Source of the DNA: Ascidiella aspersa
Taxonomy: Eukaryota
Length of the DNA stretch: 64,000 nucleotides
Reading direction: 5' to 3'
NCBI GenBank assembly: GCA_963924565.1
Contig: OZ004614.1
Span: forward strand, 18,290,001 to 18,354,000
Shown here in pieces: positions 3,429-48,313 of the stretch; position 1 is the first letter of the stretch; every line of letters starts with the position of its first letter. Below the pieces are notes generated by a model. The model was not told where the DNA came from. It searched no databases and saw only the letters and a list, made by a program, of their open reading frames with translations. The position numbers and the translations under genes are program-made.

Positions 3429-3556
3429 CCCCCTCCCCCCCCCGCCCATCCTTGTCGTTGATATATCCTTATTTATTGTTTGTGTAACTTAAATTTAGTA
3501 ACTGTAGCCTATAACTGTTGTTTTATTGTAATCATGCAACTACCGTAAAATGTAGA

Positions 3557-7488: not shown

Positions 7489-8063
7489 ACCAAGCTAGAT
7501 CACTCTCACCCCACACCCTCCACCCTAGTTCCCGCCCGACTCCCTTTCTGTCCATTATTGTTTTCATTTCTTAACTTCTAATCTACCAATACAGAGAAAC
7601 CAACGATTTCAGAGAGGTAAAAGTAACCATCGCCGCCATTTTGTTTTTAGAGACGCCATTTTGTTTTTCCGACGGCCATTTTGTTTTGTGATTAAGGCCC
7701 TTTTTAACTGAAATTGACAATTTCAAAGTGTGTCCCTACCCTCTGCAACCACAAAAGCATATCCTCGAAAGAGGGGAGCGAGAAATAAACCCAGAAATAT
7801 CTTTTTTCCTACTCGTTGTTGTTTTTCCTTTTCCTTTCGTGCCAACATGCATACTCCCCTTGTAGGAGGAGTAAAGGCCTCTTATTTGTTTTTATTTTAG
7901 TTTTGTCACTGCTTAACGGTTTACACATCCCCTGCAGTCATGACACCAGCGTGCTGCACCCAGTTTCCCCTGTTATTTTTCGCCATACTTTTCGCCGTCC
8001 GCTACCAAAATTACACACTGCTCGTTGTTCACATCCGAAACGAATATCAATAAATAACCAATA

Positions 8064-8139
8064 AGGGCAATGATGAGCCCAAACCAAAGGGGGGCCCTAG
8101 CAAATTGCTAGCCCCAAAAACCCTGAGGTCACTGAGCCC

Positions 8140-8140
<1 letters not shown>
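8064..8140 (+). ncRNA. Box C/D snoRNA-like (kink-turn) module at the 3' end of family A
   Basis: AGGGC-A-ATGATGA ... CTGA-GCCCT with internal hairpin CTAGC-AAATT-GCTAG; immediately precedes the poly(A). Confidence 0.7.
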
Positions 8141-8185
<45 letters not shown>

Positions 8186-8195
8186 AATCGTCAAA

Positions 8196-10756: not shown

Positions 10757-11143
<387 letters not shown>

Positions 11144-12230
11144 TTATGTTTGTTTATTCGCGTCACTAGGGGAAGCGAATAAAGGAGGAAAAGGACGAGA
11201 AAAACGGGCGAGGCGTACATTACACAACACGGAAAAAATAATAAAAAAAAGGAAAAGAAAGGTAATGGGTAATAACAATGAAAAGCGTTGGACAGAATGG
11301 GCGGCGGGGGTTAATAAATATTCGGAGGAAACAGTGCTAGGTCTCAACAGGGTATGTAGTGTGACGAGGTTACTAGGGAAAGGACAAGAAAAAGGCGCGA
11401 CATGACAATATATTGACCACTAGGAGAGCTAGGGGGCGTTGTGGTGGAAGACCAATAGATAGACAAAATTAACGAAGGCTTGCGTGGCGATGCTTACTAT
11501 AAAACGAGGAGGAGTAATATTGAAACAAGCAAACAAGAGATTAAATGGCGTAGGTAAATAAGTAAACAAGGAAAAGAAAAAAAATGGCGACGGATACTGA
11601 AAAGAATAAAAAGTACAATAAGTAGAAAAAAGAGTGTTGGTCAGCCAATGAGAGCTCAGAGTTTGTAGTGTCTAGGGTTCGGGGAGGGGGGTATGTCCCC
11701 TGGTTCTTCTCCCTGGATTGGCTATTAAGGAGAGCTTTTGCTAGTTCTCTCTCGTTGGTGGCAGTTTGGGTTTTTGCCTCGGACGAGAGCATTTTAGGGG
11801 TAATTCTGAATTTTATTGGGGCGCACAAAGGAGCTTGGTCTTTTGATGGTTGTTTTGCCTGTTATTTGGGCCTGTTCTGAAAAGAACTTGGCCTATTTTT
11901 GGGTTGGATATTTAGATTCTATTTTGCCTATTTTTTCACCTATCCCATTAGGACTGGGTGAAAGTGAGGAGGATTTTTGGTAAGGTGGTGCCGTGAAATT
12001 TAGTTGTTCTAGGTATTGGAGGGTTAATTTTTTGGAGGGCAGCTTTGCCTTGTTGGTTTTGGGTGGTCTAAGTGGGTTTTTTATTTGAAATTGTCGGGGT
12101 TTCTGTTTCCTTATTGTGCGGTTTAAAGTTTTATTGGGTGGGAAATTGGCGGGTTGAAATTGTCGTTTAAGTTTTAACTTTATTGGGGGTGGGGTGGCAA
12201 AGCTGCCGCAGGACGCAACTCACAACGTAC

Positions 12231-15200
12231 CTATTGGGATAGCAAATTCCTGAGGTCTTGTATTGTTGACATGAATGTTGTGTCTAGCCTATTATGTTCA
12301 ACGTTAAGTCGTTGTGTAATTCCTCTTTTTATTGCAGATATAATTGCTGAAACTGGCCGAATTGGTTTATGTTCAAACTTGATTTTATTTCTGGTTCTCC
12401 AGATGTGGTGCCGGGTGAGTGTATTGATGTATACTAGGTGCTCTGTGTATATTTCAAGGTGGCTGGGTATGTTGAGTCGTGTGGTAATCTCATCGGTGAG
12501 CGTGGTGGCAGTGTTGGTGAGTCGGTTGATTAGCTGTTCAATGTATTTCCACACTGGCGCCAGTGTGGAACATGTTGAAAAAATGTGGTGCGTGGTTTCT
12601 GGCCTACTTCCGCAGAAGAGGCACAAGGTAGCCGGGTCGAGAGATATGGAAGAGAATTTGGTGGATACGGGTAAGAGGTCAAATAAAGTTCTATAATTAA
12701 ACGTTTTTGCCGCGTTAGAGAGGATTGGGTGGTGGACGTTATTCCAGAGGGTTGTCGGAGCCATGGGACCATCCCTCTGGCTAACGTCGGGGTTGGGGGA
12801 GACTAGGCCTAGATAGAGGGTACGGATTGAGCCATGAACGAGTTGGTCGAAGGAGAAGGAATATTTTTTAACCAGGTTTAAGGCGTGTTTGTAGAAGGGG
12901 TTGGGGATAACGGCGTGGGGGTGTGAGTTTCTTAGTCGTAACTTAAAAAGGTTTGAAAGTTGGAGTCCAATATTATACTCGATCATGGCCAATCCGGGTG
13001 TAGTTGGGGTATCGTTTTCTCTATGGCGGCAATAGAAGAAGATAGACTGCATAAAGAAAAGATCGCAGTAGACGGGAATGTTTGCTACCTTGTATCCCCC
13101 CCTATCGAACGGAAGGGCCAGTTGTTGTATTGGAAGGTGCAATCTACTGTTCCCAGTTATAAAATTACCGACCGCGTCATCTACCCGTTGCCGCAACGAC
13201 TCGGGGAGTGGATAAACCGTGGCTGTATAGGATATTAATGGCAGGAATTTAGCCTTCGTGACGATGGATTTGGCGTTCCACGTCATTGCGAACCGGGCAT
13301 GGCGTTTTATTGTGTCTGTGAGGGTTTTAAAATGTTCGGCCCAGTTCGCCGTGACGCTCGGCCCAGACCCGATCACGGTCCCGAGTAAACTCAGGTGCGA
13401 TCGAGTCCATCCGATGGGGGGGAGGGGGCCCTGAGCGCTTCGGGTGTAGAGGCCTTTGGTCTTGGAGTAGTTCAGAGTTAAACCCGAAGCGTCTCTGAAA
13501 CGATCTAATTTTTGGAACGCCAATGTCACGGAGTATGGGTGGCAAAGGGTCAGGGTTGTGTCATCGGCATAACTGGGACACTTGATGCAGTGTCGACCAG
13601 GTATGCCGATGCCGCTGACCGACGAGTCGGCCTGAAGGGCCAGTGAGAAGGGCGTTGCGGCAATCAGGAAAAGGAACAAGCTAAGGGGATCGCCTTGTCT
13701 TATTCCCCTTCCAATTGCAAATGGCGCGGTCGGGAACCCGTTAACAAGAACAGTAGATTGTGCGTCTGTGTTTATGCTGCGTATTACTCTGATAAAGTGT
13801 TCAGGAAAACCCATTTTAGTCATAACACAATAAAGCCATGCGTGGTCGACCGAGTCGAAGGCCTTCTTGAAGTCTAGGGAGATAAAGTAAGCATCCGTAC
13901 CCCTCCCCAGCGCGTCATAGTAGAGATCCCTAAGGAGGGTGGTGGCATCCGATATACGCCGTTTTGGCGCTGCGAATTGGTGGGGGTGGAGGACTCGCTC
14001 CAGGATCGCTTTTATCCGAGTGGCCAGGATTTTGGTGTAAATTTTTAGGTCGGTGTTGAGCAGGGAGATAGGGCGATAGTTTCCTAGGTCCGAGGGATCT
14101 TGTTTTTTGTGTAAAAGGGTGAGTGTGCCGAGTTTCATGTCCTCGGGGATTTGGCCTTGTTCGTGGATTCGGTTCATGACGTCAGTCAGATCCCGACCAA
14201 TCAGCTCCCAGTACAGAGAATAAAACTCTGTGCTGATGCCGTCCGGACCGGGGGACTTTCCCGACGCCATTTGCCGAATTGCGTTATGTACTTCCTGGCC
14301 CGTGATTGGTCGGGTCAGGGTGTCGTCTAAGGGGTCTAAGCTAGTAGGGACGTGCGCTAGAAAACTCCGCTGCGCCTCGGCGTCTGTGGGTTGAGTGCGG
14401 TACAAGTCCGTGTAAAAGCTGTGGGCGATGTTAAGCATCTCTACGTTGTTACTGGTTTTGTTTTGGCTTGTGCCTTGTTTAAGCTCGAGTATGGTTGTGT
14501 TCCTACGCTGTTCGGCAAACCGAGCAAAGAATGCCTTTGTGCCCCGGTCTCCCCAGTCAAAACCTTGGGCTCGGGATTTAAGAAGTCTGGCGCGGGCAGA
14601 TTGCCGCTGAAGGGTGCAAAGTTGACGTTTAAGGGTTAGGTAGGGGGTAAGTAGGGTTGGGTTGTTTGCCAGCGACCCCCAGAGTGCCGTGACGCCTTCC
14701 TGCAGTTGCACATGGTGTTTGTTTCGCTCTACGGCTTGCAATTTGGAGTGCTTTATGTTAAGGTCTTTTATGCGTTGTTTTATGTGCAGCCACCAGGAGG
14801 TTTTATCATCGAAAAGGGCGGGGTGGAGCGTGCTCCACATTTCCCACCGCTTTTCGAGTTCCTCCCGGAAAGCTGCGTTGGCGTAGGTGCTAGTATTGTT
14901 TTTCCAGTACCCCTTACCCTTGCGGGATCCGGGGACCGTCTCGATTTGTAAGGTTACCATGTCGTGGTCCGACTGGCAATTGGGCGTCCCATTTTCCGAA
15001 ATTGGTTTTATGAGTGCGCTGATATAGAAACGATCTAAGCGGGACTGTGTGTTGTTAAGTCTACGTGTATAGAATGGCCTATCGCCGTACAACTGCCGAA
15101 AGGAGTCTGACAACTGGAGATCGCGGCAAACGTCAATGAGACCTGCCAGGAGCTCGGGATAAGTAGAGGGGGGTAAACGATCAAGGCGCGAGTTCTCCAC

Positions 15201-15653
15201 CCCGTTAAAATCGCCCGCCAAAATGGTTGGGTGCCTCGAATGCACGTGCACGTACAGCGACCCGAAGAAAGCTCTGCGAGCAGCACTTCCTTCGGTTCGC
15301 TGCGGGGCATACACGTTTACGACGTGTATTGTTGAGCCGAAAAGCTGTATATCGACTGCCAGGACCCGCCCGTCTCCGTCGCCACTACGCGCGCCGAAGC
15401 TGAGTGATGGATGCCTAAGCAATATCGCGACCCCGTTCCTCGCGAGAGGCCTCGACAAGGCCGACCAAAACAGGGCTTTATTGGGTTGCCATTCAACACC
15501 CCACGCCATTTCCTCCGCAGGAGAACTGTGCGTCTCCTGCAGAAGAATGACGTGTGCGTCGCTTCCAGAAAGGGAATGAAAAATGGCCGATCGTTTGGCC
15601 GCATCTTTCATTCCCCCGACGTTGAATGTGGTTACTTTAAGGTAAGTAGCCAT
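12231..15653 (-). CDS. Family B ORF2p (1140 aa): APE endonuclease, reverse transcriptase, C-terminal CCHC
   Basis: TFNVGG, LQETH, GDFN, SRLDRFY, SDH; SPGPDG, YRPISLLN, LDFKKAFDSV, GIRQGDPLS, YADD; CLFC..HIFSTC; uninterrupted. Confidence 0.97.
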   Translation of the reverse strand: MATYLKVTTFNVGGMKDAAKRSAIFHSLSGSDAHVILLQETHSSPAEEMAWGVEWQPNKALFWSALSRPLARNGVAILLRHPSLSFGARSGDGDGRVLAVDIQLFGSTIHVVNVYAPQRTEGSAARRAFFGSLYVHVHSRHPTILAGDFNGVENSRLDRLPPSTYPELLAGLIDVCRDLQLSDSFRQLYGDRPFYTRRLNNTQSRLDRFYISALIKPISENGTPNCQSDHDMVTLQIETVPGSRKGKGYWKNNTSTYANAAFREELEKRWEMWSTLHPALFDDKTSWWLHIKQRIKDLNIKHSKLQAVERNKHHVQLQEGVTALWGSLANNPTLLTPYLTLKRQLCTLQRQSARARLLKSRAQGFDWGDRGTKAFFARFAEQRRNTTILELKQGTSQNKTSNNVEMLNIAHSFYTDLYRTQPTDAEAQRSFLAHVPTSLDPLDDTLTRPITGQEVHNAIRQMASGKSPGPDGISTEFYSLYWELIGRDLTDVMNRIHEQGQIPEDMKLGTLTLLHKKQDPSDLGNYRPISLLNTDLKIYTKILATRIKAILERVLHPHQFAAPKRRISDATTLLRDLYYDALGRGTDAYFISLDFKKAFDSVDHAWLYCVMTKMGFPEHFIRVIRSINTDAQSTVLVNGFPTAPFAIGRGIRQGDPLSLFLFLIAATPFSLALQADSSVSGIGIPGRHCIKCPSYADDTTLTLCHPYSVTLAFQKLDRFRDASGLTLNYSKTKGLYTRSAQGPLPPIGWTRSHLSLLGTVIGSGPSVTANWAEHFKTLTDTIKRHARFAMTWNAKSIVTKAKFLPLISYTATVYPLPESLRQRVDDAVGNFITGNSRLHLPIQQLALPFDRGGYKVANIPVYCDLFFMQSIFFYCRHRENDTPTTPGLAMIEYNIGLQLSNLFKLRLRNSHPHAVIPNPFYKHALNLVKKYSFSFDQLVHGSIRTLYLGLVSPNPDVSQRDGPMAPTTLWNNVHHPILSNAAKTFNYRTLFDLLPVSTKFSSISLDPATLCLFCGSRPETTHHIFSTCSTLAPVWKYIEQLINRLTNTATTLTDEITTRLNIPSHLEIYTEHLVYINTLTRHHIWRTRNKIKFEHKPIRPVSAIISAIKRGITQRLNVEHNRLDTTFMSTIQDLRNLLSQ

Positions 15654-15710
15654 GACTACTATTTAGTTTAGGTTCAGCTATCTATCCTAGGTACATCCTA
15701 AGTTGCGTCC

Positions 15711-17081
15711 TTATGCCATGCTTTGCGAAAGCGGCGTGGCCTTCTTCTCGCATTGGGGGCAGACGCTTATGTCTCCCGTGTTTGAAAAAAAATGGCAGCT
15801 GCCGACGCAGCTTTGTAGCCACTGGGGGCAGCCGGTACACTTAGTGGCTTTGCCCGCTAGAGGGACTTGGACGGCCACGCCGCAATCGCAGGTTTCGGTT
15901 AGAGTTTCTAGGCGCTGTGCCTTATGGTTATTTGTACTCTCGTCCGAGCCTGAATAAAACCGCTTAACTGCATCTTTTATGTTGTCGTCGTCCTGGTGCT
16001 GTTCCCCTCCTGTTGAGTCCGTTTCCGATGTGAAAGTGGTTGTAGGTTCGCTTGAGCTGAATTCCGTGGTGACCGATGTGCCCGCGTTCACCGCTAAGGC
16101 GTCGTTTTCAGTGGTGCCCGCGTTCACCGCTAAGGCGCTGTTTTCAGTGGTGCCCGCGTTCACCGCTAAGGCGCTGTTGCTTGCTGTGCCCGCGTTCACC
16201 GCTAAGGCGTTGTTGTCATTGGACCCCTGTTCACCAGGGGCCGCTTTTCCTTTCCCGCCTTCCTCGCTCTCGCTCGGTGGTTGGTCGGTTGGCGGGGGGG
16301 AGGTCCTCTCAGGCGCCTGTTGATGGGAAGGCGGCGGAGGAGGAGGAGGAGGAGGAGTAGGAGGAGGAGGAGGGATGTTGGGGAGAGGAAGGCCTGGCTT
16401 GGGCCATTGTTTCCCGTTTCGTCTGTTGACGGTGGTGTAGCCATCCGTGTTGGATGGCCCTGGTTTGGGGGTTGACGTATGATCCGGCGTTGTCAGCTCC
16501 TGTGATTTCAGGACCTGGCAGTCGTCTTTGTAGTGGCCGAACTTTCGGCATATAAAGCATTGGGGGGGTTGGCCCGTGTACTTTGTCGGGAAGGCCAGCC
16601 CCTCGACCCGGATCGTTTGCGGGATGGGGCTTCTTTTGAGGTCCGCAGTTCTCATTGTATAAGTGGTGCGGCCGTCGTTTAGATGGTTGCGGTCCTTTTG
16701 TCGCTTGTAATCTTTAACTTCTCCGTGCCGGAAATTCAATAGTGAGACTATTTCCTGGATCGGAAATCTTGGCGGGACGTGCGAGACTTCCACCGTAGTG
16801 AACTCGCTTTCATACCGCTTGACGGACTGGACCGCTGATTGGCCGGTTAGGCGGATTACCAGGTCATCGGCGGCTTTTTCGTCGACGCAGGTGAAGTCGG
16901 TGAAGCCTCCTCTGCGTTCGACGATGCCTTCCAGGCGGTTGTAATTGAAATGCACCTTCTTGAGTAGTTCGTATATGAAGTTGCGGGATCTTTTGTCCGG
17001 CAGCTTTGCCACAACTTCTGTTTTTCTTTCAAAGATGGTTCGACTTCTGGCGACAACTTTGTTCCAGCCTGGCTGGGCCAT
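15711..17081 (-). CDS. Family B ORF1p (456 aa)
   Basis: CFICRKFGHYKDDC knuckle, poly-Pro stretch, C-terminal multi-Cys domain (CDC..CTGC..CVGSC..CPQC). Confidence 0.9.
   Translation of the reverse strand: MAQPGWNKVVARSRTIFERKTEVVAKLPDKRSRNFIYELLKKVHFNYNRLEGIVERRGGFTDFTCVDEKAADDLVIRLTGQSAVQSVKRYESEFTTVEVSHVPPRFPIQEIVSLLNFRHGEVKDYKRQKDRNHLNDGRTTYTMRTADLKRSPIPQTIRVEGLAFPTKYTGQPPQCFICRKFGHYKDDCQVLKSQELTTPDHTSTPKPGPSNTDGYTTVNRRNGKQWPKPGLPLPNIPPPPPTPPPPPPPPPSHQQAPERTSPPPTDQPPSESEEGGKGKAAPGEQGSNDNNALAVNAGTASNSALAVNAGTTENSALAVNAGTTENDALAVNAGTSVTTEFSSSEPTTTFTSETDSTGGEQHQDDDNIKDAVKRFYSGSDESTNNHKAQRLETLTETCDCGVAVQVPLAGKATKCTGCPQWLQSCVGSCHFFSNTGDISVCPQCEKKATPLSQSMA
16078..16213. repeat. 36-bp coding tandem repeat (x4) in family B ORF1
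   Basis: Core GTGCCCGCGTTCACCGCTAAGGCG repeated; encodes NxALAVNAGT units. Confidence 0.85.
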
Positions 17082-17655
17082 TGCGGGCTGGGTTGAGGAG
17101 GTGTGCAGTGGGGTGACTGCAGGTTAATGGGGAGGGTATTGGTGGCGTCTTATTGGACGGTTGTCCTCAACGCTTAGGTCGGGTAGTTCTAGCGGGCCTT
17201 GAAAAAGGCCAGGAAAAGGTTTTTCCTTTTGCGCTTGGTAGGATCTGAGGGTTGGGGTTTTTTGGGTTGGCCCACTTACCGTTCCGGCGGCAAAACTCTT
17301 GAAAAACCGAGTAATGCGTTTTTTTCCGGCAACGGGGTGGGACGGGTTGCTGGTACTAAGCCTGTTCAGGGAAATCCCTACGCTCCAAACCTTCGGGGCT
17401 AGGCAGGAGCTTATTCTCTTTTCTTCCTGAATCAGGTAAGTCTGGCAGGATATTGCGCAGATCTTGCTGTCGTGGACGGTTTGTCGGGTCCTTACGGAGC
17501 TCGAAACAACAACCGTTCTGAGTCTGGTCTGAATGACTGACTGCTGACAGCTCTTCGGATATTGTGAAGGATAGAGTTCTTCACTTTGTAATAACTTGAA
17601 ACTGGCTTGCTTGGCTTTGCTTAAAATAGCTTGGCTTTGCTCTGTACACTTGTAC

Positions 17656-17905
17656 TTGTTTCTCGAGTGAAATCGAAAGAATGAAGGCGGGCGGTTTGAA
17701 ACGCCTTTTATAATCCCCACGCCTGTCGAAAAACCGCCCGACGGTTGAAAAGCGCGCGCAGTAACACCCAATCGTTTTTTCCGCGCACTCTCGCACTGCT
17801 CCATTGGCGAAAGCGTCGAGCCGTCATTTGCATCTCTTCCGATCTATAAGCGACGAGAGTGGAAAAACACGCCACACTCTTCGTCGTCGAAAGCTACGAA
17901 GAACC
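17656..17905. promoter_or_regulatory. Second copy of the H2A/H2B divergent promoter, now flanked by retroelements on both sides
   Basis: Essentially identical to 1-242 from position 17664; octamer 17826-17833. Confidence 0.9.
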
Positions 17906-19282
17906 GATTTCACTCGAGAAACGAGAAACTCGAACATACAAGTGTATGACCCAAATATGTTGTCCAAGCCATGGAGCATGGTTGTTTCCCAGGGGAATCC
18001 CCACACCGCCGCAGGGAATCCTTCCCTCGTCGCAGCGCCCCGCAGGAGGGAGGTCTTCTCCCGTCGTACGGAGGTCGTTGCTAAAATTCCAAGCAAGAGG
18101 TCAAGGAACTTCATCTACAGCCTCCTAAAACTGGTGTCGTTCGACACCAACAATCTGGAGGGGATAGTCGAACGAAAAGGAGGCTACACCGACTTCACGT
18201 GCAAAACTGAACAGCAAGCCGAAGAGTTGGTCTTCAAGCTGAAGAGCAGACCCGAGGTCGAGCTCGCAAGGCGCTATGAGAGCGAATATACCAGCGTGGA
18301 AATATCGCACGTGCCACCTCGCTTCGACATCGGTACGCTTATGGCGTACATCCAGAAGAATCACGGCACTGTCCTAGAGGCCAGAAAACTAAAGGACGCC
18401 ATAGCCGGTCTCCCAGACGGGAGAATAAAAGCAGAGGTGCTCACCGAGCACCTGAAACGAAAACCCATCCCGGCAACCATCCGATGCGAAGGACTCACGT
18501 TTCCAGTGAGGTACTACCAGCAACCACAGCAGTGCTTCCACTGCAGAGCCTTCGGCCACATCCGGGCAAATTGCCCGACACGCCAGCCCCCATCGCAGCG
18601 CCCAGCAGACGAGGAACCCGACCCAGCGACAAACTCAGAGAAGACCCCGGAGAACACGCCAACAGACATCTCGTCGGAGAGCGGTGAGAAGACAGAGGCG
18701 GCAACATCATCCAGCATAACGGCGGCCACAGCAGTAACAGCAACAGCAGCATCCGGCAACTCAGCGGCAAACGATGTCCAACAGCCAGAAGAAGACTGCA
18801 CCACCAAACGACAAAGAAGCAGCGGCAACACCCCTCCCGATCACGACCAAAAGCGTCCAAAAGCAGAAGATGACAGGCTTTGCCTGCCGCAGCCCGAGGG
18901 GCCTCCTGTGGACGGGCCAGTGCGCAAATGCCGTGAATGCCTCGAGTGCGACTGCCAAGCACTCGTGGATTTTCCAGAGCCGGGCACACCGACTGTATGC
19001 GACGCCTGCAAAAGGATCTTCCGCTGGTGCGACGAATGTAATTATGCATACGTGTGGCTTCCCAAAAGCCAGAAGTCTTGCCCCACGTGCGGGACTTTCA
19101 TACCTGAAAGCCTCTCACAAACCCTCCCGGGTTGACAGAGGCGGTCTGGAAGCAGGGAACCTGCATAATCATTGTTTGTTTTCAAAGTTATATTTGCATA
19201 TTTGTTTTTCGCCTCGCCCGTTTTATTTCGTTCTTTTTCTTTCTTATTCGTTTTCTGTAATTGATGCGAATAAACCAACATA
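17906..19282 (+). mobile_element. Family C copy 1: ORF1-only non-autonomous element in the H2B 5'UTR
   Basis: Splits GAAGAACC|CTCCTGTCAAAATG; ORF1 homologous to family B ORF1; 3' end similar to the family B 3' end; no ORF2 and no poly(A). Confidence 0.85.
17957..19135 (+). CDS. Family C ORF1p (392 aa), copy 1
   Basis: RRTEVVAKIPSKRSRNFIY aligns to family B RKTEVVAKLPDKRSRNFIY; CFHCRAFGHIRANC knuckle; Cys-rich C-terminus. Confidence 0.85.
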   Translation: MLSKPWSMVVSQGNPHTAAGNPSLVAAPRRREVFSRRTEVVAKIPSKRSRNFIYSLLKLVSFDTNNLEGIVERKGGYTDFTCKTEQQAEELVFKLKSRPEVELARRYESEYTSVEISHVPPRFDIGTLMAYIQKNHGTVLEARKLKDAIAGLPDGRIKAEVLTEHLKRKPIPATIRCEGLTFPVRYYQQPQQCFHCRAFGHIRANCPTRQPPSQRPADEEPDPATNSEKTPENTPTDISSESGEKTEAATSSSITAATAVTATAASGNSAANDVQQPEEDCTTKRQRSSGNTPPDHDQKRPKAEDDRLCLPQPEGPPVDGPVRKCRECLECDCQALVDFPEPGTPTVCDACKRIFRWCDECNYAYVWLPKSQKSCPTCGTFIPESLSQTLPG

Positions 19283-19293
19283 CTCCTGTCAAA

Positions 19294-20814
19294 ATGGCTG
19301 CAAGCAAAGGCACCAAAAAGGCTGTCAATGAAGCGGACCCTCCTCTCCTCGAAGACCGTCCTGAAACTGTCAGCTCTTTCCTCCAACCCCCTGCAACCCA
19401 GCCAGCTGAAGTTTTGGCCACTGATGTGCCCTCAACGTCGCAAGCTCGTCCGAAGATGCTTGCAAACGTCGACCAAGACATCATTGATGCCTTGATGTTC
19501 GACCAATCCTCAGACGTGACTGCACGTTTTGTTCCAGCCCTCAGTCGGGCTATGATCTCGCTGCTGATGCACGAGGTCTACCCGACTATGAGGGACTGGA
19601 TCGACCACCTTGAAGCGATTGTACAAAAGCCGAACGGCTATGTTACTTTCACTTGCACGAAAAGAGAATCTGCTGCCGCCCTGACAGCACTACTACGGGC
19701 GAGGCCCGAATGCAGTTTTGCCGAGCTATTTGATGAAGATCAAATAAAGGCAAAACTGTCATATGTACCTCCGCGAATGCGAAACGACGCCATCAAGAGA
19801 TGGTTTACTCTCAAATATGCCGAGTGCACAAGAGTCAGAATCCTTCGGGATAACGATAAATGTGCCAATGGCAAGAGAGAACTGACGCTGAAAAGCTCAG
19901 AAATCGAGAATAATCCTATCCCGAAGTTCATAAAACTCGGGAAGGCCAAGGTAGCAGTTTACTACCAAGGTCAGCCGGACTTTTGCAATTATTGCAAAGA
20001 GATGGGCCACGACTTACCCTCGTGCCCAAAACTGGCAAAAAAAAAAGAGAAAAAAAGAGAATACGCCAAACAAAAGCATCTCGTCAGAGCAGAGCCACCG
20101 CCTCTGAACGACGAAAATTTTCCTCCTATGGAGGTACTACCAGGAGGCTCTCCACTGCTCGCTGGGATCCCCCCCAGTGCCACTAGCACACCGAACGTGG
20201 TCAGAATATCGCCGAGCAAGAGCGAAAAACGAAGAAAAAGGAAAGAACGAAGAAAAAAAAAGAAGAGACAACAAAGAGAGAAGCGAAAAGAAAAGAAGAA
20301 GGCAAAGAAAAGAAATGATACAACAACGGAGTCATCCTCTTCATCTACCCCCCTCCCAATCAACGATGCCGATCCCGGTATCGAAATGCATTCCTCTCTC
20401 GAGGCCGAGCTCGAGGAAAATGCTTTCATGGCGTTCCATGCCTATGAGAAACCCCTCAATGCCATTCCCATTGGAATTGATCCCGGTTCCGAGAACTCCT
20501 CCCATATATTCTCTTCGAGCGACCCATCGCCACAAGGGAAGAGAAATCGATCTTCAACCACAGAAGGGAGCTCAAAAACACCCGCCCACAAGCCGAAGCG
20601 TCGATTGGTCGACTATACCATAGACGAGATCTCGGCAATCAAGGCCCAAACAGTGACCGGTGGTAACTACACCGGGTACTTTTGCCGAGCATGCCGCAAT
20701 TATTTCAACCCTCTCATGAAGGAGCAGTCAACTCAATGTGGCTGTCCTCTCACATCGAAACAACTCTACAGCGAGCTGCAATGCGAGCTATACGCTCATG
20801 AGTCTACTTTTTAA
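19294..20814 (+). CDS. H2B N-terminus (11 aa) in frame with family D ORF1p (506 aa total; internal Met at 19456)
   Basis: [11 protein letters not shown] then ORF1 similar to family A (KLSYVP, NGKRELTL, CNYCKEMGHDLPSC), with a long K/R tract. Confidence 0.8.
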   Translation: MAASKGTKKAVNEADPPLLEDRPETVSSFLQPPATQPAEVLATDVPSTSQARPKMLANVDQDIIDALMFDQSSDVTARFVPALSRAMISLLMHEVYPTMRDWIDHLEAIVQKPNGYVTFTCTKRESAAALTALLRARPECSFAELFDEDQIKAKLSYVPPRMRNDAIKRWFTLKYAECTRVRILRDNDKCANGKRELTLKSSEIENNPIPKFIKLGKAKVAVYYQGQPDFCNYCKEMGHDLPSCPKLAKKKEKKREYAKQKHLVRAEPPPLNDENFPPMEVLPGGSPLLAGIPPSATSTPNVVRISPSKSEKRRKRKERRKKKKRQQREKRKEKKKAKKRNDTTTESSSSSTPLPINDADPGIEMHSSLEAELEENAFMAFHAYEKPLNAIPIGIDPGSENSSHIFSSSDPSPQGKRNRSSTTEGSSKTPAHKPKRRLVDYTIDEISAIKAQTVTGGNYTGYFCRACRNYFNPLMKEQSTQCGCPLTSKQLYSELQCELYAHESTF

Positions 20815-21126
20815 AAGCCCTCCCTACTTCTCAGATGTTCGAAGATGCCACCTCCAGGTTCTTCAGTTTATGTGAAGACATCTTCGTTCATCCCTTTGGA
20901 TTCCTTTTTTTTCATTGTAAGTATACTTTGCATTGTTTGTTTATGTTTTTGTCTTTCGACAAGAACTCAACAACTTTGTATATATTCCCTTTATTCACTG
21001 TATATTTAACTTGTATTATTTGTTTCGTTTTTTTTCCTCGCAAAACTTTAATAAAACAACGGGCAATGATGCTCCCCTCCCCGGGTGGTGCAGCTGTCAC
21101 CAACACAAACCCGAGGCCCTGAGCCC

Positions 21127-21159
<33 letters not shown>
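19329..21159 (+). mobile_element. Family D copy 1: ORF1-only poly(A) element starting at H2B codon 12
   Basis: Begins after AAAAAGGCTGTCAA; ORF1, short 3'UTR, AATAAA, C/D-like module, poly(A) 21130-21159. Confidence 0.85.
21060..21127 (+). ncRNA. Box C/D-like module, family D copy 1
   Basis: CGGGC-A-ATGATGC ... CTGA-GCCCG; compensatory C-G pair replaces the A-T pair of family A. Confidence 0.65.
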
Positions 21160-21161
<2 letters not shown>

Positions 21162-22515
21162 AACTCGAACATACAAGTGTATGACCCAAATATGTTGTCC
21201 AAGCCATGGAGCATGGTTGTTTCCCAGGGGAATCCCCACACCGCCGCAGGGAATCCTTCCCTCGTCGCAGCGCCCTGCAGGAGGGAGGTCTTCTCCCGTC
21301 GTACGGAGGTCGTTGCTAAAATTCCTAGCAAGAGGTCAAGGAACTTCATCTACAGCCTCCTAAAACTGGTGTCGTTCGACACCAACAATCTGGAGGGGAT
21401 AGTCGAACGAAAAGGAGGCTACACCGACTTCACGTGCAAAACTGAACAGCAAGCCGAAGAGTTGGTCTTCAAGCTGAAGAGCAGACCCGAGGTCGATCTC
21501 GCAAGGCGCTATGAGAGCGAATATACCAGCGTGGAAATATCGCACGTGCCACCTCGCTTCGACATCGGTACGCTTATGGCGTACATCCAGAAGAATCACG
21601 GCACTGCCCTAGAGGCCAGAAAACTAAAGGACGCCATAGCCGGTCTCCCAGACGGGAGAATAAAAGCAGAGGTGCTCACCGAGCACCTGAAACGAAAACC
21701 CATCCCGGCAACCATCCGTTGCGAAGGACTCACGTTTCCAGTGAGGTACTACCAGCAACCACAGCAGTGCTTCCACTGCAGAGCCTTCGGCCACATCCGG
21801 GCAAATTGCCCGACACGCCAGCCCCCATCGCAGCGCACAGCAGACGAGGAACCCGACCCAGCGACAATCTCAGAGAAGACCCCGGAGAACACGCCAACAG
21901 ACATCTCGTCGGAGAGCGGTGAGAAGACAGAGGCGGCAACATCATCCAGCATAACGGCGGCCACAGCAGTAACAGCAACAGCAGCATCCGGCAACTCAGC
22001 GGCAAACGATATCCAACAGCCAGAAGAAGACTGCACCACCAAACGACAAAGAAGCAGCGGCAACACCCCTCCCGAGAACGACCAAAAGCGTCCAAAAGCA
22101 GAAGATGACAGGCTATGCCTGCCGCAGTCCGAGGGGCCTTCTGTGGACGGGCCAGTGCGTAAATGCCGTGAATGCCTCGAGTGCGACTGCCAAGCACTCG
22201 TGGATTTTCCAGAGCCGGGCACACCGACTGTATGTGACGCCTGCAAAAGGATCTTCCGCTGGTGCGACGAATGCAATTATGCATACGTGTGGCTTCCCAA
22301 AAGCCAGAAGTCTTGCCCCACGTGCGGGACTTTCATACCGGAAAGCCTCTCACAAACCCTCCCGGGTTGACAGAGGCGGTCTGGAAGCAGGGAACCTGCA
22401 TAATCATTGTTTGTTTTTCAAAGTTTTATTTGCATATTTGTTTTTCGCCTCGCCCGTTTTATTTCGTTCTTTTTTCTTATTCGTTTTCTGTAATTGATGC
22501 GAATAAACCAACATA
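21160..22515 (+). mobile_element. Family C copy 2 (intact ORF1 21192-22370)
   Basis: Near-identical to copy 1; followed by CTCCTGTCAAAATGGCTGC. Confidence 0.85.
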
Positions 22516-22561: not shown

Positions 22562-24419
22562 TGAAGCAGACCCTCCTCTCCTCGAAGACCGTCCTGCAAC
22601 TGTCAGCTCTTTCCTCCAACCCCCTGCAACCCAGCCAGCTGAAGTTTTGGCCACTGATGTGCCCTCAACGTCGCAAGCTCGTCCGAAGATGCTTGCAAAC
22701 GTCGACCAAGACATCATTGATGCCTTGATGTTCGACCAATCCTCAGACGTGACTGCACGTTTTGTTCCAGCCCTCAGTCGGGCTATGATCTCGCTGCTGA
22801 TGCACGAGGTCTACCCGACTATGAGGGACTGGATCGACCACCTTGAAGCGATTGTACAAAAGCCGAACGGCTATGTTACTTTCACTTGCACGAAAAGAGA
22901 ATCTGCTGCCGCTCTGACAGCACTACTACGGGCGAGGCCCGAATGCAGTTTTGCCGAGCTATTTGATGAAGATCAAATAAAGGCAAAACTGTCATATGTA
23001 CCTCCGCGAATGCGAAACGACGCCATCAAGAGATGGTTTACTCTCAAATATGCCGAGTGCACAAGAGTCAGAATCCTTCGGGATACTGATAAATGTGCCA
23101 ATGGCAAGAGGGAACTGACGCTGAAAAGCTCAGAAATAGAGAATAATCCGATCCCGAAGTTTATAAAACTTGGGAAGGCCAAGGTAGCAGTTTTCTACCA
23201 AGGCCAGCCGGACTTTTGCAATTATTGCAAAGAGATGGGTCACGAAATACCCTCGTGCCCAAAACTGGCAAAAAAAAAGAGAAAAAAAGAGAATACGCCA
23301 AACAAAAGCATCTCGTCAGAGCAGAGCCACCGCCTCTGAACGACGAAAATTTTCCTCCTATGGAGGTACTACCAGGAGGCTCTCCACTGCTCGCTGGGAT
23401 CCCCCCCAGTGCCACTAGCACACCGAACGTGGTCAGAATATCGCCCAGCAAGAGCGAAAAACGAAGAAAAAGGAAAGAACGAAGAAAAGAAAAGAAGAGA
23501 CAACAAAGAGAGAAGCGAAAAGAAAAGAAGAAGGCAAAGAAAAGAAATGATACAACAACGGAGACATCCACTTCATCTACCCCCCTCCCAAACAACGACG
23601 CCGATCCCGGTGTCGAAATCAATTCCTCTCTCGAGGCCGAGCTCGAGGAAAATGCTTTCATGGCGTTCCATGCCTATGAGACACCCCTCAATGCCATTCC
23701 CATTGGAATTGATCCCGGTTCCGCGAGCGGTAATTCCTCCCATATATTCTCTTCGAGCGACCCATCGCCACAAGGGAAGAGAAATAGAGCTTCGACCTCA
23801 GAAGGGAGCTCAAAAACACCCGCCCACAAGCCGAAGCGTCGATTGGTCGATTATACCATAGACGAGATCTCGGCAATCAAGGCCCAAACAGTGACCGGTG
23901 GTAACTACACCGGGTACTTTTGCCGAGCATGCCGCAATTATTTCAACCCTCTCATGAAGGAGCAGTCAACTCAATGTGGCTGTCCTCTAACATCGAAACA
24001 GCTCTACAGCGAGCTGCAATGCGAGCTATACGCGCATGAGTCTACTTTTTAGAAGCCCTCCCTACTTCTCAGATGTTCGAAGATGCCACCTCCAGGTTCT
24101 TCAGTTTATGTGAAGACATCTTCGTTCATCCCTTTGGATTCCTTTTTTTTTTCATTGTAAGTATACTTTGCATTGTTTGTTTATGTTTTTGTCTTTCGAC
24201 AAGAACTCAACAACTTTGTATATATTCCCTTTATTCACTGTATATTTAACTTGTATTATTTGTTTCGTTTTTTTTTCTCGCAAAACTTTAATAAAACAAC
24301 GGGCAATGATGCTCCCCTCCCCGGGTGGTGCAGCTGTCACCAACACAAACCCGAGGCCCTGAGCCCGGTAAAAAAAAAAAAAAAAAAAAAAACAAAAAAA
24401 AAAAAAAAAAAAAAAAAAA
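22562..24419 (+). mobile_element. Family D copy 2 (H2B ATG at 22527; frameshift in A-run ~23280; C/D module 24300-24367)
   Basis: Near-identical to copy 1; ORF split into 22494-23339 and 23216-24052. Confidence 0.85.
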
Positions 24420-25780
24420 CAAGAAACTCGAACATACAAGTGTATGACCCAAATATGTTGTCCAAGCCATGGAGCATGGTTGTTTCCCAGGGGAATCCCC
24501 ACACCGCCGCAGGGAATCCTTCCCTCGTCGCAGCGCCCTGCAGGAGGGAGGTCTTCTCCCGTCGTACGGAGGTCGTTGCTAAAATTCCTAGCAAGAGGTC
24601 AAGGAATTTCATCTACAGCCTCCTAAAACTGGTGTCTTTCGACACCAACAATCTGGAGGGGATAGTCGAACGAAAAGGAGGCTACACCGACTTTACTTGC
24701 AAAACTGAGCAGCAAGCTGAAGAGTTGGTCTTCAAGCTGAAGAGCAGACCCGAGGTCGATCTCGCAAGGCGCTATGAGAGCGAATATACCAGCGTGGAAA
24801 TCTCCCACGTGCCACCTCGCTTCAACATCGGTACGCTTATGGCGTACATCCAGAAGAACCACGGCACTGTCCTAGAGGCCAGAAAGCTAAAGGACGCCAT
24901 AGCCGGTCTCCCAGACGGGAGAATAAAAGCAGAGGTGCTCACCGAGCACCTGAAACGAAAACCCATCCCGGCAACCATCCGATGCGAAGGACTCACGTTT
25001 CCAGTGAGATACTACCAGCAACCACAGCAGTGCTTTCACTGCAGAGCCTTCGGCCACATCCGGGCAAATTGCCCGACACGCCAGCCCCCATCGCAGCGCA
25101 CAGCAGACGAGGAACCCGACCCAGCGACAATCTCAGAGAAGACCCCGGAGAACACGCCAACAGACATCTCGTCGGAGAGCAGTGAGAAGACAGAGGCGGC
25201 AACATCATCCAGCATAACGGCGGCCACAGCAGTAACAGCAACAGCAGCATCCGGCAACTCAGCGGCAAACGATATCCAACAGCCAGAAGACGACTGCACC
25301 ACCAAACGACAAAGAAGCAGCGGCAACACCCCTCCCGAAAACGACCAAAAGCGTCCAAAAGCAGAAGATGACAGGCTATGCCTGCCGCAGTCCGAGGGGC
25401 CTTCTGTGGACGGGCCAGTGCGTAAATGCCGTGAATGCCTCGAGTGCGACTGCCAAGCACTCGTGGATTTTCCAGAGCCGGGCACACCGACTGTATGTGA
25501 CGCCTGCAAAAGGATCTTCCGCTGGTGCGAGGAATGCAATTATGCATACGTGTGGCTTCCCAAAAGCCAGAAGTCTTGCCCCACGTGCGGGACTTTCATA
25601 CCGGAAAGCCTCTCACAAACCCTCCCGGGTTGACAGAGGCGATCTGGAAGCAGGGAACCTGCATAATCATTGTTTGTTTTCAAAGTTTTAGTTGCATATT
25701 TGTTTTTCGCCTCGCCCGTTTTATTTCGTTCTTTTTCTTTCTTATTCGTTTTCTGTAATTGATGCGAATAAACCAACATA
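24420..25780 (+). mobile_element. Family C copy 3 (intact ORF1 24455-25633)
   Basis: Same 392-aa ORF; ends AACCAACATA|CTCC. Confidence 0.85.
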
Positions 25781-25784
25781 CTCC

Positions 25785-27114
25785 GATTTCACTCGAGAAA
25801 CAAGACACTAGAACATACAAGTGTATGACCCAAATATGATGTCCAAGCCATGGAACATGGCCGTTTCCCAGGGGAATCCCCACACCGCCGCAGGGAATCC
25901 TTCCCTCGTCGCAGCGCCCCGCAGGAGGGAGAGGTCTTCTCCCGTCGTACGGAGGTCGTTGCTAAAATTCCTAGCAAGAGAACAAGGAACTACATCTACA
26001 GCCTCCTATAAAACTGGTGTCTTTCGACACCAACAACCTGGAGGGGATAGTCGAAAGAAAAGAAGGCTACACAGACTTTACGTGCAAAACTGAACAGCAA
26101 GCTGAAGAGTTGGTCTTCAAGCTGAAGAGCAGACCCGAGGTCGATCTCGCAAGGCGCTATGAGAGCGAATACACCAGCGTGGAAATCTCGCACGTGCCAC
26201 CTCGCTTCAACATCGGTACGCTTATGGCGTACATCCAGAAGAACCACACGGCACTGCTCTAGAGGCCAGAAAGCTAAAGGGCGCCATAGCCGGTCTCCCA
26301 GACGGGAGAATAAAAACAGAGGTGCTCACCGAGCACCTGAAACGAAATCCCATCCCGGCAACCATCCGATGCGAAAGACTCACATTTCCAGTGAGGTACT
26401 ACCAACAACCACAGCAGTGCTTCCACTGCAGAGCCTTCGGCCACATCCGGGCAAATTGCCCCCATCGCAGCGCACATCAGACGAGGAACCCGACCCAACG
26501 GCAAACCTCGTAAACAACATCGCCAAACGCAACAGCAACAACAGCAACAACAATCTCCGGCAACTCAGCGGCAACCTACATCCAACAGCCAGAAGACCAC
26601 TGCACCACCAAACGAACAAGAAGCAGCGGCAACACCCCTCCCGAGAACGACCAAAAGCTACCAAAGGCCGGGATGACAGGCTATACCTGCCACCGTACGA
26701 AAAGCCTTCTTTCCACAACGAAGGGTGCGATTACCTCATCTGCACCTGCACCGGTGTGGTGGAATAATATCCAGAGGCGGACGCACCGACCGTATGCGGT
26801 GAATGTTTGAAGCTCTACCGCATGTGCAATGGATGCAATGAAGCACACGAGTGGCACCTCGAGAGCCAGAAGCTTTTCCCCAAGTGCAAGACCCCCATAA
26901 TAGGCTTCCTCTCGCAAACCCTTCCAGGTTAACAGGGGTGGCCTAGAGTGGGAATCCCGCAGAAAGTCAAATGCGCTATTTTTTGCCTAATTTGCATAAT
27001 TTCGTTAATTTCAATTATTTTTTTATATTCACATTTGTTTTCGTTTCGCCCGTTTTATTTCGTTCTTTTTCTCCCTTATTCGTTTTCTTTAATTGATGCG
27101 AATAAACCAACATA
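25785..27114 (+). mobile_element. Family C copy 4, frameshifted, with variant C-terminus
   Basis: Starts GATTTCACTCGAG; fragmented ORF1; ends AACCAACATA before an H2B start remnant. Confidence 0.8.
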
Positions 27115-27117
27115 CTC

Positions 27118-27147
27118 ATGGCTGCAAGCAAAGGAAAGGCTGTTAAG
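27118..27147 (+). pseudogene. H2B N-terminal remnant
   Basis: ATGGCTGCAAGCAAAGG-AAAGGCTGTTAAG with an internal deletion. Confidence 0.75.
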
Positions 27148-33521: not shown

Positions 33522-34782
33522 TCTTTCGATTTCACTCGAGAAACAAGACACTCGAACATACAAGTGTATGAAGGTTGTACTCCAAATATGATGTCCAAGC
33601 CATGGAACATGGCCGTTGCCCAGGGGAATCCCCACACCGCCGCAGGGAATCCTTCCCTCGTCGCAGCGCCCCGCAGGAGGGAGGTCTTCTCCCGTCGTAC
33701 GGAGGTTGTCGCTAAAACTCCTAGCAAGAGATCTACGCCTCCTGAAATTGGTGTCTTTCGACACCAACAACCTGGAGGGATAGTCGAAAGAAAAGGAGGC
33801 TACACGGATTTTACGTGCAAAACCGAAGAGCGTCCTTAAGCTCAAAAGCAGACCCGAAGTCGATCTCACAAGGCGCTATGAGAGCGAATACACCAGCGTG
33901 GAGATCTCGCACGTCCCACCTCGCTTCAACATCGGTACGCTAATGGCGTACATCCAGAAAAACCATGGCACTGCTCTAGAGGCCAGAAAGCTAAGGACGC
34001 CATAGCCGGACTCCCAGACGGGAGAATAAAAGCAGAGGTGCTCAACGAGCACCTGAAACAAAACCCCATCCCGGCAACCATCAGATGCGAAGGCCTCACA
34101 TTTCCAGTGAGGTATTACCGACAACCGCAGCAATGCTTCCACTGCAGAGCTTTCGGTCACATCCGGGCAAACGCCCCCATCGCAGCACACATCAGACGAG
34201 GAACCCGACCCAGCGACAAACTTCGTGAACATGGATGGCAACGGACACCTCGTCAAAAAGCAAAGAGGAGACGAAAAAAGTGGAAAAAACAGAAGTGGCA
34301 TCATCGTCCAACGCAACAGCAACAACAGCAACAACAACCTCCGGCAACACAGCGGCAACCGACATCAAACAGCCAGAAGACGACCGCACCACCAAACGAC
34401 CAAGAAGCAGCGGCAACACCCCTCCCGAGAACGACCAAAGGCCGAAGATGACAGGCTATGCCTGCCACAGTCCGAGGGGCCTTCTGTGGACAGGCCAGTG
34501 CGTGAATGCCTCGAGTGCGACTGCCAAGCTCTTGTGGATTTTCCAGAGTCGGCCACACCGACTGTATGCGACGCCTGCAAGAGGATCTTCCGCTGGTGCG
34601 ATGGATGCAATTGGGCATACGTGTGGCTTCCCAAAAGCCAGAAGTCTTAGGGGCTCGTAATTTGCATAATCATTGTTTGATTTCAACGTTTTTATTTGCA
34701 TATTTGTTTTCGTCTCGCCCGTTTTATTTCGTTCTTTTTCTCCCTTATTCGTTTTCTTTATTGATGCGAATAAACAAACATA
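33522..34782 (+). mobile_element. Family C copy 5, decayed, in the H2B 5'UTR
   Basis: CACTGAAGA|TCTTTCGATTTCACTCGAG ... AAACAAACATA|CTCCCGTCAA. Confidence 0.82.
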
Positions 34783-46242: not shown

Positions 46243-46423
46243 ATGTCAGGAGGCGCAGGAGATAGTAGCAAGCCGAAAGCCAAGAAGGCACCGCCGACCC
46301 CGGCGACCCATCCCACCTACCAGGTGATGGTCACCGCCGTCATTGCACAGCTTAAAGAAAGAAACGGCTCGTCCCGACAGAAGATTGTCGAGTACGTCAA
46401 GGACAACCAACAGGTCAGCAACA
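46243..46423 (+). pseudogene. H1 5' fragment fused to the 3' half of a family C element
   Basis: [15 protein letters not shown]...RQKIVEYVKDN matches ~8196-8377, then switches to family C sequence. Confidence 0.9.
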
Positions 46424-46966
46424 ACAGCAACAACAGCCTGCGACAACACAGCGGCAATCGACACCAAACAGCAAGAGGACGACTCCACCAAACGACCAAG
46501 AAGCAGCGGCAACACCCCTCCCGAGAACGACCAAAGGCTGAAGAAGACAGACTGCACCTGCCACCGTCCGAAATAATTCCTTTCGATGAAACAGAGGATT
46601 CTTACATCATCTGCTCCTGCAGCGGTTTAGCGGGATTTCCAGAGGTGCACGCACCGACCGCATGCGGTAAATGCGGGAAGATCTTCCACCTGTGCGACGG
46701 TTGCGACAACACACACATGTGGCTCCCCAAAAGCCAGAAGTTTTGCCCCAAGTGCGGGACCCCCATAATCGACAGCCTCTCAAAAACCTTTACGGGTTGA
46801 CAGAGGTGTAGTAGTCTAGAGGGGTTCTTGCAGAGGGGCTCGTTATTTACATAATAATTGTTTGATTTAAACTTTTTATTTGCATATTTGTTTTCGTCTC
46901 GCCCGTTTTATTTCGTTCTTTTTCTCCCTTATTCGTCTTCTTTATTGATGCGAATAAACAAACATA
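46424..46966 (+). mobile_element. Family C copy 6, 3' half
   Basis: Cys-rich ORF1 C-terminus and family C 3' end followed by CTCCCGTCAA. Confidence 0.8.
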
Positions 46967-46976
46967 CTCCCGTCAA

Positions 46977-48313
46977 TTCACTCGAGAAACAAACACTCGA
47001 AGCATACAAGTGTATGAAGGTTCTATTCCCAAGATGATGTCAAAGCCATGGAACATGGCCATTTCCCAGGGCAATCCTCATTTCGCCGCAGGGAATCCTC
47101 CCCTCATTGCAACGCCCCACAAGAAAAAAGTTTTCTCCCGCCGGACAGAAGTCGTCGCTAGGTTCCCATTCAAACGATCAAGAAACTACATCTACAGCCT
47201 CCTGAAATTGGTGTGTTTCGACACAAAGAACCTAGAGGGGATCGTCGAAAGAAAAGAAGGCTACACGGATTTTAAGTGTAAAACAGAAGAACAAGCTGAA
47301 GAAGAGCAGACCCGAAGTCAATCTTGCAAGGCGCTACGAAAGCAAGTACACCAGCGTGGAGATCTCACACGTTCCACCTCGCTTCAAAATCGGTATGCTG
47401 ATGGCATACATACAGAAAAACCACGGCACTGCTCTAGAGGCCAGAAAGTTAAAGGACGCCATCGCCGGACTACCTGACGGACGAATAAAAGCAGAGGTGC
47501 TGACGGAGCACCTGAAACAAAACCCTATCCCGGCAACCATCAGATGTGAAGGCCTCACATTTCCAGTAAGGTATTACCGACAACCGAAGCAGTGCTTCCA
47601 CTGCAGAGCCTACGGCCACATCCGGGCAAATTGCCCGACACGCCCACCACCAACGCAGCACAGAGGAACCCGACCCAGCGACAACTCGGAGAAGACCCCC
47701 GAGAACATGCCAGCGGACATCTCGTCAGAGAGCGAGGAAAAGACAAATAAAGAAGAAAAACCAGAGGAGGCAACATCCTCCAGCACAACAACACCCACAG
47801 CAACAACAGCCTACGGCAACACAGCGGCAACCGACACCAAACAGCCAGAGGACGACTCCACCAAACGACCAAGAAGTAGCGGCAACACCCCTCCCGAGAA
47901 CGATCAAAAGCGATCAAAGGCCGAAGATGACAGGTTATGCCTGCCGCAGTCCGAGGGGCCTTCTGTGGACAGGCCAGTGCGTGAATGCCGTGAATGCCTC
48001 GCGTGCGACTGCCAAGCTCTTGTGGATTTTCCAGAGTCGGGCACACCGACTGTATGCGACGCCTGCAAGAGGATCTTCCGCTGGTGCGATGGATGCAATT
48101 ATGCATACGTGTGGCATCCCAAAAGCCATAAGTCTTGCCCCACTTGCGGGACCTTCATACCGGACAGCCTCTTACAAACCCTCCCGGGTTAATTTGCATA
48201 ATCATTGTTTGATTTCAACGTTTTTATTTGCATATTTGTTTTCGTCTCGCCCGTTTTATTTCGTTCTTTTCCTCCTTATTCGTTTTCTTTATTGATGGGA
48301 ATAAACAAACATA
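46977..48313 (+). mobile_element. Family C copy 7, diverged
   Basis: Starts TTCACTCGAGAAACAA; ORF1 in two frames (47010-47477, 47356-48192); ends before CTCCCGTCAAAATG. Confidence 0.82.

Follow-up and report, generated by a model that had tools for sequence, protein, structure and literature searches.

What allows a LINE that ends without a poly(A) tail to start its own copying, and what places it at one exact base in front of a histone gene? The question is raised by a stretch of 64,000 nt from the genome of Ascidiella aspersa (C8:18290001-18354000; here called the window). The window is part of a tandem H1-H4-H3-H2A-H2B array with a clean unit of about 4.7 kb and contains five histone stem-loops. 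One of its H2A genes is separated from its promoter by an element that we call B. The features of B and its host gene are as follows.

11145..17649, minus strand: element B, 6505 bp, an intact APE-type LINE of the L1/Tx1 group
12231..15653, minus strand: B ORF2, 1140 aa, with AP endonuclease, reverse transcriptase and zf-RVT
15711..17081, minus strand: B ORF1, 456 aa, with a CCHC knuckle and a C-terminal Cys cluster
11135..11144, minus strand: remainder of the H2A 5' UTR, ATCGCAAAAA, the first read-through bases and putative priming sequence
10757..11134, minus strand: H2A ORF, intact, 125 aa
10688..10734, minus strand: 3' histone stem-loop of H2A (RF00032)
17650..17682, minus strand: upstream part of the H2A leader, with a putative start site; off-site B copies and element C begin with this sequence
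17683..17905: divergent H2A/H2B promoter and H2B leader, with TATA-like boxes near 17706 and 17845

The domain set of an APE-type element of the L1 group (AP endonuclease, reverse transcriptase and C-terminal zinc-binding domain) is complete in B ORF2, which matched PF03372, PF00078 and PF13966 in Pfam. Its best match among solved structures was LINE-1 ORF2p (E 3e-52), with the next reverse transcriptase at 1e-22, and its nearest named relative is from Phallusia mammillata (62%). ORF1 had no Pfam match; it contains a 36-bp sequence repeated four times (16078-16222). Marks of target-primed reverse transcription are 5'-truncated copies and, in three of eight off-site copies, duplications of 12-16 bp. 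In the H2A gene, B lies 10 nt upstream of the ATG, and its insertion duplicated 0-1 bp. All six empty H2A alleles read ...GAGAAACAAATACA directly followed by ATCGCAAAAAATG, with the insertion point of B between the two. Behind B, H2A and its stem-loop are intact, as a preliminary description of this DNA had stated, and identical to an empty allele at 540 of 540 nt. B occupies the identical base of the H2A leader at two of the nine H2A starts seen, and the 5' junction of a third B is decayed. Contig depths in X1 hinted that B is present in a minority of H2A copies (562/8287 at 11146) and that the assembled array is too small. We set this hint aside because depth is not a copy number.

The window also contains seven copies of a second element, C, and an element D that is fused to part of H2B.

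17906..19282, plus strand: C copy 1, with H2A leader, ORF at 17957-19135 and shared 3' module at 19210-19282
19283..21163, plus strand: D, ORF1-only and poly(A)-tailed, joined in frame to the leader and initial 11 codons of H2B
21160..22515, plus strand: C copy 2, directly behind the poly(A) of D, first ~20 nt missing
24417..25780, plus strand: C copy 3
25784..27114, plus strand: C copy 4, tandem, decayed
33523..34782, plus strand: C copy 5, within a decayed H2A/H2B promoter
46416..46966, plus strand: C copy 6, 5' part missing, behind an H1 fragment
46977..48313, plus strand: C copy 7, with 10 bp of the H2B leader repeated on either side

The preliminary description took B to be autonomous and C to be non-autonomous, and our analysis agrees: C is an ORF1-only relative of B. 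The C ORF (392 aa) aligns with B ORF1 over 178 aa at 54% identity, and C has no reverse transcriptase domain. C lies mostly upstream of H2B, and copy 1 terminates 11 nt upstream of the H2B ATG. Downstream of the seven copies we found the H2B stub and D (two copies), another C (two) or a stub and a decayed element (three); an intact H2B with its stem-loop follows none of the seven. C, stub and D form a unit of 3.2 kb that is repeated twice with 97.9% identity and ends in poly(A). The D ORF (window 19294-20814) begins at the H2B ATG and has the first 11 H2B codons in frame.

At least three further related, site-specific families are found in the array (window 1760-8195 and 27146-32162; L053:7785-7920). 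The tail of one lies 12 nt upstream of the H1 ATG in three near-identical copies, another is inside H2B codons 9-11, and another, with an intact ORF2 (1145 aa frame), is upstream of the H4 TATA box. At the ends of the poly(A)-tailed families, the sequence GGGC-AATGATG ... CTGA-GCCC, variable in its inner part, separates an AATAAA-like signal from the tail (window +8066, +21062, +24302, +32076, +40476, +46126 and +52517; also L053 and L061). We take this motif to be similar to a box C/D kink-turn with a terminal stem; a search of it against Rfam gave only a chance-level match (E 2.9). In the window, seven ends from these neighbours combine an AATAAA-like signal with an A-run and with a motif different from that of B and C. 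ORF2 of a further element, A, is broken by a 490-bp insert (window 5003-5503) that is absent from the copies at C8:18264731 and 18275414, and sequence similar to the insert occurs at C3:25150098. A decayed element carries a 74-bp sequence repeated four times in its 3' region (45718-46008).

B and C share a 3' module with ~79-83% identity. Its parts in B are given below.

11145..11215, minus strand: 3' terminal module, with the CGCCTCGCCCG motif, a pyrimidine tract, a stem-loop and the AACATA end
11153..11183, minus strand: stem-loop, 9-bp stem with arms 11183-11175 and 11161-11153 and a 13-nt loop
11158-11153, minus strand: AATAAA, within the 3' arm of the stem
11145..11155, minus strand: terminal 11 nt of B, matching 9 of 11 letters of the H2A leader just 5' of the insertion site

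Elsewhere, DNA similarity between B and C is recognisable only at the 5' end and over ~225 nt of ORF1. The end sequences first quoted for the two elements were correct, as were the loops of 13 and 14 nt, and none of the eight ends in the window carries poly(A) (B at 11145 on the minus strand; C at 19282, 22515, 25780, 27114, 34782, 46966 and 48313). The tailless 3' end is a confirmed feature of B and C. The true terminus of B is AACATA, 8 nt beyond AATAAA. The final 11 nt of B, AAACAAACATA, resemble the host sequence AAACAAATACA found just 5' of the insertion point in six of six empty H2A alleles; the letters of the empty allele are distinguishable from B at 11146 and 11148.

The stem had been described as conserved and the loop as not conserved. 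The first part held, since the stem is invariant except for a G-G mismatch in one of the eight copies; the second was too general, because copies in this genome keep a C and a TGA in the loop, which varies freely only in relatives from other samples, where it is 2-5 nt long. The proposed sequestration of AATAAA agrees with high predicted pairing in seven of the eight ends (0.94 in B, 0.80 in six C copies, 0.40 in one C copy), with the restriction that C pairs only five of the six AATAAA bases. By comparison, predicted pairing averaged 0.23 for background AATAAA (n = 644; 3.6% reach 0.8) and was 0.07-0.50 for AATAAA of the tailed families (n = 5). The folding z-score of the B end was -2.68, with 0 of 200 shuffles as stable, and two C ends folded no better than shuffles (z -0.29 and -1.02). 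Among 19 aligned ends, 89% of cells pair, AATAAA is retained in all 19, as it is in the relatives, and none of 11 pairs is altered on both sides; such invariant pairs are uninformative about covariation either way. What speaks for the stem is that it lies at element ends and is invariant there; covariation adds nothing. The bare stem pattern was not enriched genome-wide (65 matches versus 79 for the control); most of the 30 loci listed were unrelated chance matches, and three old ends from this search were added to the set. Rfam has no family for the B end. A pairing of CGTTTT with host AAAATG predicted in the C fold was dropped as unsupported by shuffles. The invariant stem is likely to be a recognition signal for the B reverse transcriptase on both B and C RNAs.

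Searches of the genome for ends of the B/C type yielded 26 distinct ends, a count that is a lower bound and includes at least two that look like segmental duplicates. Twenty stop exactly at AACATA and five others are old and divergent. The last (C8:18722217) has a deletion that removed AATAAA, followed by ATCGC and 12 A within an A-rich flank; on its 5' side this copy runs into a gap. That copy is the only one with an A-run when these genomic copies are checked for A-tails; the other 25 of 26 lack the 3' poly(A) tail that marks L1 proper. In a search with the reverse transcriptase, the next lineages beyond B copies had ~52% identity or less, and those that were examined end in a different, tailed motif.

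Eight of the AACATA-ended copies lie at non-histone flanks, and these off-site copies were compared with the sequence that an RNA reading on into H2A or H2B would carry. The comparison left out six off-site ends without AACATA, namely the copy with the deletion and 12 A and the five old, divergent ends, which have no clear flank match by eye. The first five flank bases matched the better of the two read-through sequences at 4, 5, 2, 5, 4, 4, 4 and 5 positions, that is, at four or five of five in seven copies and at only two in one. A match of at least four of five occurred in 2.1% of background draws, and the summed score was reached in 0 of 200000 simulations. Three of the copies have target-site duplications of 12, 16 and 15 bp, indicating that the matching bases preceded insertion. 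Flanks were H2A-like for four B copies and for the C copy bearing only an H2A leader; they were H2B-like for two C copies with an H2B leader and for one truncated C, and one of them matches 9/10. In all seven copies of known source (four B, three C) the flank is closer to the read-through of the source gene. An automatic duplication call at C8:4749574 was a self-match and was discarded.

Host leaders are found at the 5' ends of off-site copies (H2A on three, H2B on two), DNA evidence that the RNA began in a histone gene. One off-site B copy keeps the H2A promoter upstream and may be rearranged. A repeat that matches the genome 13 times has been hit at the identical base by one B and one C copy, which suggests that the two use common machinery. 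Empty copies of this repeat (11/11) resemble the H2A site upstream (left) of the nick, a likeness that a preference of the endonuclease would explain by itself and that suggests a part for the endonuclease in the choice of site. The T of ATCGC at C8:18448480 could have been copied from RNA, since empty repeats read ACCGC (11/11); this is unproven, with two other changes within 16 nt. An element of only ~140 bp (L034, C7:2028596-2028740) consists of an H2B leader joined to a C 3' end, with a 15-bp duplication, and looks like a SINE-like product of the B/C system. The off-site junctions fit the earlier proposal that reverse transcription is primed by target complementarity, and priming on read-through bases, as in R2, is probable given the junction sequences, which a preference of the endonuclease may also help to explain. 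Read-through priming was reportedly described for R1Bm by Anzai et al. in 2005.

We examined 80 metagenome loci that contain relatives of B. Seven have TATTCG-CGAATA with a short loop and no tail, compared to 0.8 expected. All seven fall among the 16 closest relatives (at least 37% identity); in five the hairpin is at the element's own end and in two it is in an upstream neighbour, leaving about four independent cases. The arms of the hairpin persist at 37-47% ORF2 identity, and the loop shifts from 13-14 nt to 2-5 nt. A histone gene was found beside none of the 80 loci, including the seven with the stem (best E 0.087). Three relatives (L067:1539, L071:102 and L084:4015) open with a spliced-leader exon followed by the donor GT and ~12 bases, suggesting that they may be inserted in, and co-transcribed from, spliced-leader RNA genes. 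The ascidian spliced-leader motif, as given in PMC1488885, has 358 matches in the genome. On C3 (5.21-5.45 Mb; L161-L168) there is an array of spliced-leader RNA genes with a 584-bp tandem unit that contains site-specific LINEs of 7-8 kb. These belong to at least two lineages and are inserted 28-34 nt into the gene, many with a long open ORF2; they have A-run ends, of 5-24 in the six inserts examined.

In a tree of 86 reverse transcriptases (FastTree, midpoint root), B, its relatives and the tailed histone families form a clade with a support of 0.999. This B clade joins a group with the Keno-like L077 at 0.892, in a tree that includes no named Tx1 reference. We do not claim that the stem is the ancestral state because the tree orders hairpin and tailed families only with low support (0.45 and 0.12). 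The Keno-like element (L077:5786-5960 and 6549-6665) has its A-run end at a U2 snRNA gene and lies close to a U5 gene.

From these data we consider it probable that the stem of B and C is recognised by the B reverse transcriptase and that copying starts on host read-through bases paired to the nicked target. The histone promoter would transcribe the element and the RNA would extend at least 5-10 nt beyond AACATA. ORF2p would bind the stem, the endonuclease would nick near the histone start with a loose preference, and the junction would be set by pairing of the read-through bases with the DNA end released by the nick. RNA made from H2A would then go to H2A-like sites and RNA made from H2B to H2B-like sites. 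Because copying would start on a few host bases, no tail would be copied. Support at the DNA level is provided by the insertion sites, the exact AACATA end, the host leaders on off-site copies and the off-site flanks that match the source leader. Small numbers, and copies that are not all independent, weigh against this explanation.

A variant of this explanation, differing from it only in the RNA end and counted within it, is that AATAAA is used. The RNA would be cut at a CA before the ATG and polyadenylated, and its end, ATCGC-A(n) or CTCCTGTC-A(n), would match the target leader and A-run. A CA followed by an A-run is present 13 nt (B) or 16 nt (C) after the hexamer, just before the histone ATG; this spacing is canonical for cleavage at both targets, and in H2A a GU-rich tract lies downstream. 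Because both targets have the CA and A-run, an RNA cut and polyadenylated there matches the target and leaves no tail. The invariance of AATAAA and the off-site copy ending in ATCGC and 12 A also fit, but the hexamer is predicted to be paired, and the latter copy has the A-rich flank, lost AATAAA and gapped 5' end described above. At least some read-through is implied by the C-stub-D unit, whose poly(A) end suggests that RNA may pass the C stem into a polyadenylated RNA; unequal exchange is another possible origin of the second repeat. We regard the use of AATAAA as a possible but rather unlikely account.

As for the RNA end itself, the DNA junctions are equally compatible with a long read-through RNA or with an RNA cut and polyadenylated before the ATG. 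Cleavage and polyadenylation at the CA is a serious possibility, though short of probable; a long read-through with mixed ends is somewhat more doubtful, and it is unlikely that B RNA is processed mainly at the histone stem-loop. We mapped ~6% of RNA run X6, which has the same species label, to B and the first 35 H2A coding bases. Of 59 mapped reads, 53 overran the end of this stretch as H2A mRNA would, and all 28 junction reads bore the letters of the empty allele. Too small to test the model, this sample had no reads over 11266-11597 and no B sense RNA; the few reads in the body of B (depth at most 1.1) were oriented opposite to H2A mRNA.

A second alternative is that the endonuclease alone picks the site and the RNA ends at AACATA, so that the flank matches would reflect a DNA preference, possibly with tethering near active promoters. 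Target choice in known families is set mainly by the endonuclease (PMC4494074). On either side of the nick, the repeat used twice is similar to the H2A site, and four related families insert within ~60 bp of histone starts. Yet the kind of site used by C follows the leader that it carries, even though H2A and H2B flanks have only three of the first five bases in common. The search with the reverse transcriptase also found no other B-like autonomous family, the next lineages being at ~52% identity or less and tailed where examined. We find this alternative unlikely.

The preliminary description had proposed that the stem hides AATAAA, that transcription consequently runs through H2A and that the RNA could then be processed at the histone stem-loop into a histone-type mRNA lacking poly(A). 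The 80-94% pairing of AATAAA in seven of eight window ends, against 0.07-0.50 in five tailed-family AATAAA, is in line with this, as are the intact H2A and stem-loop behind B. The three relatives with a spliced-leader exon suggest another non-polyadenylated Pol II host gene. The sense strand of B contains eight other AATAAA, and the masked one, the last of the nine, is the only one that precedes a GU-rich tract. Seven of the eight others are largely unpaired, so that masking one signal is not by itself the cause of read-through. The lack of an intact H2B and stem-loop behind any of the seven C copies in the window also speaks against this proposal, as does the lack of histone genes beside the 80 metagenome loci, including those with the stem. 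An element could more simply lose AATAAA than hide it, but 19 of 19 aligned ends and the relatives retain it, and no off-site copy examined has H2A or H2B coding sequence past its end. Histone stem-loop processing is not available to the C copies seen; for B it is possible with low probability, and as an explanation of the system we judge it improbable. That the stem is a functionless relic of common descent is very improbable, because B-C similarity is confined to the 3' end, the 5' end and part of ORF1 and the arms outlast the loop at 37-47% ORF2 identity, despite the absence of covariation and of genome-wide enrichment of the bare pattern.

The preferred explanation, in which the stem is recognised and host bases prime copying, can be compared with known systems, as far as the available text of the sources cited describes them. 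LINEs of the Tx1 clade (Tx1L, Keno, Kibi, Koshi and Tx1-Mar; PMC4494074, PMC4640811) resemble B in having an AP endonuclease and reverse transcriptase, a CCHC ORF1, and a precise 3' junction and variable 5' junction in a multicopy gene. B has this trait at one site of the multicopy H2A leader, and C at the H2B leader. The U2-inserted, Keno-like L077 is in the sister group of the B clade but ends in an A-run, which B does not. Targets named for the Tx1 clade are U2, U5, 5S, satellites, microsatellites and transposons (PMC4494074, PMC4640811), whereas the target of B is a histone leader. As in the read-through priming of R2 and R1Bm (PMC6530143), B would be co-transcribed with a host gene and downstream target bases would pair with the primer; for R2Ol, insertion rose to 98% when the RNA ended in 4 nt of read-through (PMC6530143). 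The hosts of R2 and R1 are Pol I rRNA genes and the R2 endonuclease is restriction-like, whereas the host of B is a protein-coding Pol II gene, and here one element uses two host genes according to its source.

Like HAL1 (half-L1; PMC5753468), C is a non-autonomous derivative that encodes only ORF1p. C comes from an invertebrate element of the L1/Tx1 group, is site-specific and has a structured tailless end and a fixed H2A leader; it works like HAL1 but is not a member, having no descent from mammalian L1. In stringent-type LINE/SINE pairs a 3' stem-loop is likewise common to the autonomous element and its partner (PMC3472496). In the maize stem-loop the stem letters vary with compensation and the loop is kept, whereas in B and C the stem is fixed, the loop varies and AATAAA is in the stem. 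Tailless L1 retropseudogenes (PMC5322556), among them copies of histone mRNA, also lack a tail and are inserted at sites to which the final 2-18 nt of the RNA are complementary. They are a by-product on cellular RNAs at A-rich sites, whereas for B this would be the regular route of the element.

Histone genes are absent from the targets listed for Tx1 and other specific LINEs in the available text of PMC4494074, PMC4640811 and PMC8869645, although the supplements of PMC4494074 may list more for Tx1, and the word "histone" is absent from that of PMC4494074 and PMC8869645. A search of the openly accessible literature, which leaves Repbase and subscription journals outside, found no paper on histone-targeting LINEs. 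Leaders of protein-coding histone genes are an added type of target for elements of the L1/Tx1 group, undescribed in the literature searched. How site-specific LINEs gain new targets is an open question, and such gains are usually ascribed to changes in the endonuclease. We tentatively suggest that the trailing host bases act as a short guide, so that one reverse transcriptase and endonuclease could serve two histone genes and a stray landing could retarget all descendants. The move of C from H2A to H2B would be such a switch, and the hairpin lineage may also have colonised spliced-leader RNA genes. With an intact B, its partner C and a pair of natural targets 300 bp from each other, the system is well suited to a clean test of steering by the RNA tail. 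If the RNA tail does steer the site, this would be a simple route to target switching and may be of interest for retrotransposon-based insertion tools.
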